Positions 35,026-37,562 of a stretch of 64,000 nucleotides of DNA are shown piece after piece. The stretch is from Candidatus Methanomethylophilaceae archaeon (GTDB lineage: Archaea; Thermoplasmatota; Thermoplasmata; Methanomassiliicoccales; Methanomethylophilaceae): the NCBI GenBank assembly GCA_944320495.1, contig CALUHR010000006.1, positions 31,275-95,274 of the forward strand. The letters run 5' to 3'. The first letter of the stretch is position 1; every line of letters begins with the position of its first letter. The notes under the pieces are model-generated. The model did no database searches. It saw only the letters and a program-made list of their open reading frames with translations, and was not told the DNA's origin. Position numbers and translations under genes: made by a program.

Positions 35026-35662
35026 GTGCTCCCCGCGAATGCGGGGGTGATCCCTCTATCGTGCGATGTCCTCGATACCGGTGGATGTGCTCCCCGCGAA
35101 TGCGGGGGTGATCCCGGTGTCGGGTGGAAACTGATGGATGATTCCAGGTGCTCCCCGCGAATGCGGGGGTGATCCCTTGCCATAGAGCGAGTTCAACAGG
35201 GCTTTGAAGTGCTCCCCGCGAATGCGGGGGTGATCCGAGACGCGACGCTCGACAAAGACATCGTGCATTGTGCTCCCCGCGAATGCGGGGGTGATCCCTT
35301 CGCTGTGGTGGCCAATCCTGGGATAGCGAGGTGCTCCCCGCGAATGCGGGGGTGATCCGGTCTACCGCCTCCAGGCCATCGAGTGCATCAAGTGCTCCCC
35401 GCGAATGCGGGGGTGATCCCACCGAGACTCTTTCCGGACCACGCCAAACACCGTGCTCCCCGCGAATGCGGGGGTGATCCCACGACGACCAAGGTATTGG
35501 AGGGCCAGATAACGTGCTCCCCGCGAATGCGGGGGTGATCCCTCCGAGCGTGAGGGGACTGGGCTCGTGGTCGGGTGTTCCCCGAAATGCGGGAGTGATT
35601 CTACTCAAGCCAGTGGAAACTCCAGTGCGTTCAAGCATTCATTGCTAATGCGGGAGCAATCC
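35026..35662 (+). CRISPR. Type I-E array: 9 identical 28-nt repeats GTGCTCCCCGCGAATGCGGGGGTGATCC with 33-nt spacers, plus degenerate repeats at 35575-35601 and 35635-35662
   Basis: 61-nt period from 35026; stem CCCCGC/GCGGGG; decay at the leader-distal end. Confidence 0.97.
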
Positions 35663-35747
35663 ATGAGCATTCTCCATGAATAATGCTCAGGTCTTTGTGA
35701 AGTCAGAGGCAATGCCAACCCAAAAGTACTGGTTCATGCTCCGGATA

Positions 35748-35836
35748 TTCATTCCACGCCTTGCGTGGGTGTTCCTTAGAGCACATTGTATCAAGGGTGT
35801 GTCAAAGAGTGCTCCCCGCATTCGCGGGGTCTTCAT
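35748..35836 (+). CRISPR. Divergent repeat - 33-nt spacer - divergent repeat unit downstream of the array
   Basis: 35748-35775 (CCACGC-ctt-GCGTGG...GTGTTCC) and 35809-35836 (GTGCTCCCCGC-attc-GCGGGG) are exactly 33 nt apart. Confidence 0.55.
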
Positions 35837-35972
35837 AGAAGAGCCTAAATAGTGTCCATTCATCCACGTTTCACCGTCAGAGGTCATCAAGATGATCTGC
35901 AACGTTCACACCCCGCTTCTGCTCCTTCTGCAGTGAATAGTGTGAGCTAAAGACGGGTTTGAGGTGTTGAAA

Positions 35973-37562
35973 ATGGAATCTCAGACCAGTGATAACGCTA
36001 GCAAGCGTGCGATGTTGGCAGTCAGCCCCTACAACCAGGTCGCCCTGCCGAAGCTGCCTGAGGGTCGCGGACCGATCCAGATATTCGACACCACGCTCCG
36101 CGACGGCGAGCAGGCTCCGGGCATCGCACTCAGCGCCGAGGAGAAGGTACGCATAGCCGCGGCCCTCAACGACCTCGGCGTGGACTACATCGAGGCGGGA
36201 TTCGCAGTCTCGTCCGACATCGAACGCAAGACCATCAGGGAGATCGTTGACGCTGGTCCGCATGCGACGGTCGTCAGCCTCGCCAGGTCCGTGCGCAAGG
36301 ACATCGACGCCGCCGTGGAGACAGGGGTCCCGTGCATCCACACGTTCATCGGCACGAGCCCCCTCCATAGGGAATACAAGCTCAAGATGACCAAGGAGGA
36401 GATTGTCGAGAGGGCCGTCGACACCGTCGAGTATGCCCGTTCAAGAGGGGTGGATGTGCAGTTCTCCTGCGAGGACGCGACCCGCACCGAGCTCGACTAC
36501 CTCCTCGAGGTCTACAAGGCGGTCGTTGATGCCGGTGCTTGCGCCATCAACGTCCCCGATACCGTAGGCGTCATCGTGCCCCAGGGCATGAGCTATCTCA
36601 TCGGCGAGATCGCCAAGGTCATCAAGGTCCCGATCTCCGTCCACTGCCACAACGACATGGGTCTCGCGGTCGCCAACAGCATCGCCGCCGTGGAGGCGGG
36701 AGCGACAATCTGTCAGGCCACCATCAATGGCATCGGCGAGAGGACCGGCAACGCGTCCCTCGAGGAGATCGCGGTCAACCTCTTCGCCAACTACAACGTT
36801 GAGACCATTGACCTCTCCAAGATCGGACCCGTCTGCAGGACCGTGGAGCGCATCACAGGGTTCCCTGTCGCGTACAACAAGCCGATCAGCGGCCGCAACG
36901 CCTTCGCCCACGAGTCCGGTATCCACGTCCACGGGGTGATGGCCAACTCGGCCACCTACGAGCCGTTCCTTCCGGAGCTCGTCGGCGTGGACAGGCACAT
37001 CGTCATCGGCAAGCACTCCGGAGAGCACTCCGTCCGCGGAAGGCTCGATGCGCTCGGCATCAAGATGCCTGAGGAGCGCATGCCCGAGCTCATGGCCGCC
37101 ATCAAGGAGGCCGCCATCGGCGACAAGGAGATCGACGACGCGGAGCTCAGGGCCATCGTCGACCATATCCTCTACAGCTCCGTCATAGGTGACCCCGCCG
37201 TCATCCTGGATGGCGTCGCCGTCATGACCGGAAAGGGGATCACCAGCACGGCGACCGTCAACCTCAGGGTCAAGGGAGAGTCCCGCAGCGTCGCGGAGGT
37301 CGGCGTCGGACCCGTGGATGCGGCCATGAGGGCGATCGCCGAGGCCGTCGGCGGTGGGTACACCCTCGGGGAGTACAAGCTCGCCGCGATCAACGGGCTC
37401 TCGGACTCGCTCTGCGAGGCCACGGTCATGGTCCGCAACGCGGAGCGTGAAGGCACCGGACTCGTGGTCGGGAAGGCCGTCGGTACCGATGTGGTCCAGA
37501 CTTCCATCGATGCGATGATCTCGGCCATAAACCGCGACTTCGCCAGATATGACAATCAGTGA
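35973..37562 (+). CDS. leuA: 2-isopropylmalate synthase (LeuA/CimA family)
   Basis: FDTTLRDGEQ, HCHNDMG, GIGERTGNA, FAHESGIH, regulatory domain GVGPVDA. Confidence 0.9.
   Translation: MESQTSDNASKRAMLAVSPYNQVALPKLPEGRGPIQIFDTTLRDGEQAPGIALSAEEKVRIAAALNDLGVDYIEAGFAVSSDIERKTIREIVDAGPHATVVSLARSVRKDIDAAVETGVPCIHTFIGTSPLHREYKLKMTKEEIVERAVDTVEYARSRGVDVQFSCEDATRTELDYLLEVYKAVVDAGACAINVPDTVGVIVPQGMSYLIGEIAKVIKVPISVHCHNDMGLAVANSIAAVEAGATICQATINGIGERTGNASLEEIAVNLFANYNVETIDLSKIGPVCRTVERITGFPVAYNKPISGRNAFAHESGIHVHGVMANSATYEPFLPELVGVDRHIVIGKHSGEHSVRGRLDALGIKMPEERMPELMAAIKEAAIGDKEIDDAELRAIVDHILYSSVIGDPAVILDGVAVMTGKGITSTATVNLRVKGESRSVAEVGVGPVDAAMRAIAEAVGGGYTLGEYKLAAINGLSDSLCEATVMVRNAEREGTGLVVGKAVGTDVVQTSIDAMISAINRDFARYDNQ

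Follow-up and report, generated by a model that had tools for sequence, protein, structure and literature searches.

The analyzed window is a stretch of 64,000 nucleotides (nt; contig C6, positions 31275-95274) from a 1.77-Mb metagenome-assembled genome (MAG), 90.6% complete, of a gut Methanomethylophilaceae archaeon. It carries a type I-E CRISPR-Cas locus that adjoins leuA, and the subject of this study is the two oldest spacers of that array, spacers 9 and 10, which fit the leuA allele of related strains better than the allele resident beside the array. All sequences compared were metagenome assemblies; by LeuA, the closest named relatives were the Methanomethylophilaceae MAGs UBA480 and Candidatus Methanoprimaticola hominis. 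The cas operon, the array units, leuA and the sites within it are all given below on the plus strand. The operon (25847-34955) is composed of cas3, cse1, cse2, cas7, cas5, cas6e, cas1 and cas2, and Pfam matches were obtained for all eight genes. Cas3 with HD and helicase parts, cse1/cas8e, cse2/cas11, cas7, cas5, cas6e, cas1 and a cas2 of the I-E type, all in a single operon, correspond to the type I-E gene set, and the array shows the features of that type as well: a hairpin repeat within the 28-29 nt range, a 61-nt period and a first spacer base derived from the protospacer-adjacent motif (PAM). The resident leuA (35973-37562) heads a leuCDB operon and encodes 2-isopropylmalate synthase, as evidenced by a score of 606 bits against the NF002085 model (cut-off 517), by Pfam matches to the HMGL-like catalytic and LeuA_dimer regulatory domains, and by its leuCDB context.

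An AT-rich leader (about 34956-35025) precedes the intact array, in which nine identical 28-nt repeats alternate with spacers 1-8 (35026-35541). Spacer 9 (35542-35574) follows the ninth repeat and is in turn followed by a decayed repeat 10 with four substitutions and one deletion (35575-35601), spacer 10 (35602-35634), and a terminal region (35635-35870) made up of a decayed repeat 11 (35635-35662), a residual unit and a conserved trailer that is homologous from about 35709 to those of L104-107 and L116. Every spacer in the array is 33 nt long. The intact repeat hairpin folds at -13.9 kcal/mol, decayed repeat 10 at -6.1 kcal/mol with a 4-bp stem, and decayed repeat 11 no longer folds. Spacer 9, described in a first-pass annotation of this DNA as the leader-distal one, is indeed the last to have an intact upstream repeat, with the decayed units coming after it. 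The same annotation had taken the first spacer base to be derived from the PAM, given that seven of the nine spacers begin with C and two with G. This proposal is supported by a larger sample of 115 spacers, whose first base was C in 80 cases, T in 27, G in eight and never A, and by an independent protospacer: a spacer of the sister array L116 matches a congener (L134, G157:C1:165449-165481) at 31/33 positions, and that site is flanked by AA+C. The latter protospacer is located inside an open reading frame of 418 amino acids (aa) with weak Erf-like similarity (PHROG 155, E 6e-7), and the site probably belongs to an integrated element of the congener. A repeat-like hairpin with the stem of the repeat and a reverse-complemented loop was also observed at 35808-35829, in the trailer upstream of leuA, where it recurs in L104-107 and L102; its retention even in strains lacking cas genes points to an old array site and to repeated loss of cas.

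Alignment of spacer 9 to leuA positions 37439-37471 gave 27/33 identities, ungapped, on the same strand and in frame. The mismatches are at spacer positions 2, 4, 13, 16, 19 and 22. Four of them are synonymous third positions and the other two share a single Ser/Ala codon, which puts five of the six at the third base of a codon (binomial P = 0.018). Immediately before the site is AA (37437-37438), so that with AA+C the resident homologue of the protospacer spans 37437-37471; two of its six mismatches lie in the seed. The match described in the first-pass annotation is thereby confirmed. The second-best match of spacer 9 in the 1.77-Mb genome reached 24/33, the other eight spacers had best matches of only 22-24/33, and none of 300 shuffled versions of spacer 9 attained 27/33. 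Since just one of the 115 intact spacers from eight arrays matched this chromosome at 27/33 or better, and the chance of such a match being adjacent to the array is about 0.002 per spacer, coincidence is disfavored. The leuA paralogues of this genome were discarded as sources, being only 29-32% identical, as were the 24/33 sites on contigs C5 and C3, which were chance matches in unrelated frames.

The source of spacer 9 had been proposed to be the leuA of a relative or an ancestral allele of the resident gene. An exact 32-nt scan yielded no match in IMG/VR, GTDB genome contigs or JGI metagenome contigs, and with up to three mismatches allowed only spacer 9 itself was recovered in this genome and nothing in 261 genomes of the order. 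A wobble-degenerate pattern returned weak three-mismatch sites in 62 congeners and a single metagenome contig, L087, which at 26/33 was no better than the resident gene; both were set aside. This part of LeuA varies from species to species, and GTDB species representatives accordingly matched spacer 9 at 22-24/33 at most. A search of a large protein collection with the LeuA C-terminus led to a 90% cluster, P0002, whose 15 members encode the exact 11-aa peptide of spacer 9. These deeply diverged leuA alleles, which we refer to as the S class and which are carried by near-conspecific strains, matched spacer 9 at 30/33 in L110-112 and at 29/33 in four other haplotypes, with all mismatches at wobble positions, the first 11 bases identical and AA+C always present. 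The resident class, designated A, and a third class (SKREG..., L104-107) matched at 26-27/33. AA+C precedes all 11 haplotypes of the site, the best of which is 30/33 and none 33/33. The proposal of an allelic source thus stands insofar as S-class alleles are closer than the resident one (29-30/33 versus 27/33), whereas the expected perfect match is lacking. A donor lineage for the S allele was not found either, the nearest relative, L103, being only 78-82% identical.

The failure to find a 33/33 chromosomal source could point to a leuA-like gene on a virus or plasmid, or the partial match might have been kept for regulation of the leu operon by Cascade, since partial-match spacers have been tied to regulation in other systems (PMC8616872). 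We regard either possibility as very improbable. No virus or plasmid match was found in IMG/VR or phage records, and S-class leuA is found in a normal helicase-leuA-leuCDB context. A regulatory role is at odds with the seed mismatches at the resident site, with the decayed repeat downstream of spacer 9, and with spacer 10, which has no usable match in the resident gene.

Spacer 10 came to light when the decayed array units were screened against the loci of relatives. In each of the 15 S-class contigs that cover the site, it agrees at 29/33 positions with codons 2-13 of leuA, on the same strand and immediately after AA+T. Its homologue in the resident leuA (35978-36010) agrees at only 17/33 positions, has no AA upstream and is too diverged for targeting. 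Both spacers therefore match the core gene of a relative better than any resident sequence, at 30/33 versus 27/33 for spacer 9 and 29/33 versus 17/33 for spacer 10. It is worth noting that spacer 10 is visible only against sister strains, and that a comparison confined to the resident genome can miss spacers that match a flank. Judging from these alignments, the two oldest spacers of the array come from both ends of one S-class-like leuA, spacer 10 from the 5' end and spacer 9 from the 3' end. A distance of 1.5 kb separates their protospacers, which share a strand and both follow AA+N; two spacers are too few to establish a strand bias. Apart from these two, no spacer of this genome matches the island or leu loci of the relatives at 26/33 or better, which leaves no separate priming protospacer. 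Spacer 10 also occurs in the arrays of L116 and L117, together with the two decayed repeats, the residual unit after them and the trailer, so that this part of the array is ancestral; both of those arrays adjoin an A-class leuA.

Comparison of the S-class strains with this genome revealed that leuCDB is 94-100% identical and the upstream region about 95%, whereas identity within leuA drops to 72-87%. The block of divergence extends as far as the leuA stop codon and the intergenic region (about 37575), some 100 nt past the spacer 9 site. The S allele was present in none of six cas-positive contigs and in eight of 11 cas-negative ones. In the 5' part of leuA, the A class is 91% identical to the cas-bearing L104 lineage and the S class only 71-72% to both, a grouping that favors an A-type allele as the array's neighbor at the time of spacer uptake. 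The spacer 9 site lies within a tract of 1527 nt (36450-37976) that shows full identity to L113/L114. The second-longest such tract in 14 kb measures 475 nt, and the 1527-nt one, an outlier in length, is taken to mark a recent exchange by homologous recombination, the direction of which is ambiguous from three-way distances. Outside the tract, the 5' part of leuA is 95% identical to L113 and 71% to S; this part is already A-class, and the exchange thus did not convert S to A. The upstream flank of this genome is nearer to the S strain L108 (95%) than to the A strain L113 (91-94%).

These data bear on the possibility that the spacers arose from the host itself. An ancestor with an S-like leuA beside its array could have taken up two self spacers at a hotspot created by integration nicks, after which an A-class allele replaced the target, perhaps aided by lesions in cas3 and cas2. 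Self-derived spacer uptake reportedly has hotspots at CRISPR arrays in E. coli (Levy et al., 2015). Array-proximal hotspots of self-uptake are likewise known in an archaeon (PMC5737086), and in Haloferax CRISPR self-damage is mended by homologous recombination (PMC7521656). The 1527-nt tract over the spacer 9 site, the similarity of the upstream flank to L108, the in-frame TAG in cas3 and the frameshift in cas2 are all in keeping with such a course of events. Against it, leuA belongs to the A class in its 5' part too, which the recent tract does not cover; the direction of that exchange is ambiguous, L116 and L117 carry spacer 10 next to an A-class leuA, and S occurs in no cas-positive contig. 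Furthermore, escape by a point mutation in the PAM or seed, or by loss of the spacer, is far likelier than replacement of a whole allele. Seed mismatches are present at the resident spacer 9 site, yet the differences track allele class and not a single escape mutation. We consider self-acquisition followed by escape the main rival explanation, possible but doubtful.

The cas operon and array form a block of about 10 kb (25711-35809) that is present or absent among close strains between fixed end points at 25710 and 35810. Besides this genome, the block was present in L104-106 and in L116-117, its arrays having three variants of the repeat but no intact spacer in common; it was absent from L102, L108, L110, L111, L113-115, L122, L123, L126 and L127. 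The question raised in the first-pass annotation of whether cas lies beside leuA in relatives could thus be answered in the affirmative for L104-106 and L116-117, and a type I-E locus adjoins leuA in three lineages. The same annotation had suggested a mobile cas-leu segment. This suggestion holds only in part: leuA belongs to the syntenic core, yet is swapped along with the edge of the island.

A further explanation that follows from such exchange is that a block of cas, array and leuA recombined in through its flanks and that either the displaced flank of the resident or the unincorporated flank of the donor was degraded, thereby supplying the first spacers in the new host. The leuA spacers are among the oldest units of the array, the island of about 10 kb comes and goes between fixed end points among close strains, the block of divergence reaches precisely to the leuA stop and the intergenic region, and spacer hotspots of Pyrococcus furiosus adjoin recombining homology (PMC5737086), all of which would suit this scenario. 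However, adjacency of cas and leuA is also found in the more distant L104 lineage, so that the linkage looks old and not recently installed, there is a residual unit of still greater age distal to spacer 10, and the event left no direct trace. Capture during installation or replacement of the island is accordingly rated as improbable.

With moderate confidence, we propose that spacers 9 and 10 were taken from conspecific DNA bearing the other leuA haplotype and that they are now a harmless fossil. Both would be ordinary Cas1-Cas2 acquisitions (33 nt long, preceded by AA, beginning with a base taken over from the PAM, and on the same strand) from one source, namely an S-class-like leuA circulating in conspecific or sister-species strains that do not have the CRISPR-Cas island at this position. 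Most likely, conspecific DNA with the other haplotype of the array's own flank came in and served as this source; spacer 10 would have been acquired first and spacer 9 later, possibly by priming. The array lies in a defense island that is presumably exchanged by homologous recombination with leuA as an arm, so that DNA ends and recombination intermediates would arise at this very place. Spacer uptake in Pyrococcus furiosus has its peaks at CRISPR arrays and at places of recombination with incoming DNA (PMC5737086), and archaeal spacers matching chromosomal genes of other archaea have been documented (PMC3285040). A tolerance filter may also have operated, in that conspecific DNA would give harmless spacers only where it is strongly unlike self, and leuA would be among the few core genes of this kind. 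Every array of the lineage, including those that have spacer 10 in common, adjoins a leuA of the A or SK type, and parsimony hence favors incoming DNA as the source.

Several points weigh against an origin from conspecific DNA. A donor with a perfect protospacer was found for neither spacer, and the best S alleles differ at three to four positions, which implies a true donor that is old or has escaped sampling. Spacer 9 has a CGT in common with the resident allele and not with the S alleles. The absence of S from cas-positive contigs is based on only three independent cas-positive lineages, the contig studied here may be a strain chimera at the conserved trailer, as all the sequences are metagenome assemblies, and the same-strand pattern of two spacers is weak evidence for priming.

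As to the present state of the pair, we assume that the rules of E. coli Cascade apply. On that assumption, the resident spacer 9 site would be protected by its mismatches at seed positions 1 and 3, while two more mismatches are at the flipped-out positions 12 and 18. The three mismatches of the best S alleles are all outside the seed, and spacer 9 should presumably still cut S and spare the resident gene. Repeat 10 must supply the 3' hairpin of the CRISPR RNA made from spacer 9, and its weaker fold, the unfolded repeat 11 and the two cas lesions together suggest decay. In cas3, an in-frame TAG at 28460-28462 replaces an Arg codon of three relatives, 49 codons beyond it remain conserved, and at the position of the relatives' stop (28607-28612) reading continues here via a CGA codon; the TAG may, in this order, be read through as pyrrolysine, or it may be a truncating lesion. 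In cas2, a 1-nt insertion near 34753 (about 34750-34760) causes a frameshift that leaves core residues 1-85 intact and places the C-terminal 55 residues out of frame relative to the 252-aa form of the relatives; this may be a real lesion or an assembly error. The pair of spacers is thus most likely a fossil. An active role can also be envisaged, whereby the array would guard its own locus, the spacers directed against S leuA destroying incoming conspecific DNA that would otherwise, by recombination through the flanks, swap the CRISPR-Cas island for the cas-less haplotype. We regard this as unlikely; if true, locus guarding would help the cas-positive/A and cas-negative/S haplotypes to persist side by side in a stable dimorphism.

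Directly upstream of the point of cas insertion is a three-gene module (20099-25730) encoding a TerB_N protein, a BrxC-BrxD-like ATPase and a DEAD helicase, which is kept in strains without cas (L108, L113 and L114). An additional AAA_14/DUF4143 gene was observed between the helicase gene and leuA in some S strains (L110, L123 and L126). Arrays of type I-E with a related repeat were also found in two congeneric species (L100, G165:C176, with 21 spacers; L101, G167:C48, with 19 spacers), and these two arrays have an identical trailer-end spacer and a decayed tail in common. They were considered as further arrays linked to leuA and rejected, since neither adjoins that gene. An orphan mini-array with decayed repeats related to the I-E repeat is located on the minus strand at G000:C5:274780-274995, with no cas genes nearby. 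For the remaining spacers of this genome, nothing solid in the way of protospacers was found in the 62 congeners; a wobble-degenerate scan of IMG/VR with spacer 3 (35176-35208) gave no match, and neither did a comparison of the L116 array with phage records.

CRISPR arrays are usually read as records of encounters with viruses; at this locus the two oldest units of the array instead record the alternative allele of its neighboring gene. The locus ties together inter-strain exchange, turnover of a defense island by homologous recombination and a deeply dimorphic leuA, in an uncultured lineage of human and animal gut methanogens. It also offers a testable case for whether CRISPR limits or shapes homologous gene flow within a species and whether an array can protect its own locus.

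Spacers derived from the core metabolic genes of relatives have been described in archaea and, likewise, were read as a record of inter-strain transfer (Brodt et al., 2011, PMC3285040; Turgeman-Grott et al., 2019). Unlike those spacers against archaeal chromosomal genes, the target in the present case is an alternative allele of the gene flanking the array itself, its two ends gave rise to consecutive spacers, and the donor class is without the island at the locus. The host also differs, in that the type I-E system of this gut Methanomethylophilaceae archaeon takes the place of the haloarchaeal type I-B system. The work of Shiimori et al. (2017; PMC5737086) showed a similar PAM-dependent oversampling by Cas1-Cas2 beside an active array or recombining homology; those data are laboratory uptake profiles with perfect self matches, whereas spacers 9 and 10 fit a non-resident allele better. 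The self-targeting spacers of Stern et al. (2010), cited in PMC8616872, resemble spacer 9 in having a partial resident match, seed mismatches, a decayed repeat and cas lesions. They differ from it in that no one-step escape is seen here; a whole diverged allele class fits better, and spacer 10 is without a usable resident match. The nearest functional analogue would be the anti-cas orphan arrays of E. coli (summarized in PMC8616872), which likewise carry spacers against the alternative haplotype of their own locus and could block replacement of that locus. The polarity is reversed, the present case being a cas-positive array with spacers against the flank allele of a cas-less haplotype; moreover, its units are decaying, and what we observed is a relation between sequences together with an absence of linkage between cas and the S allele. 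What is new in comparison with these systems is that two spacers are directed against the array's flanking gene in an alternative allelic form, and that this form is linked to a haplotype without cas.

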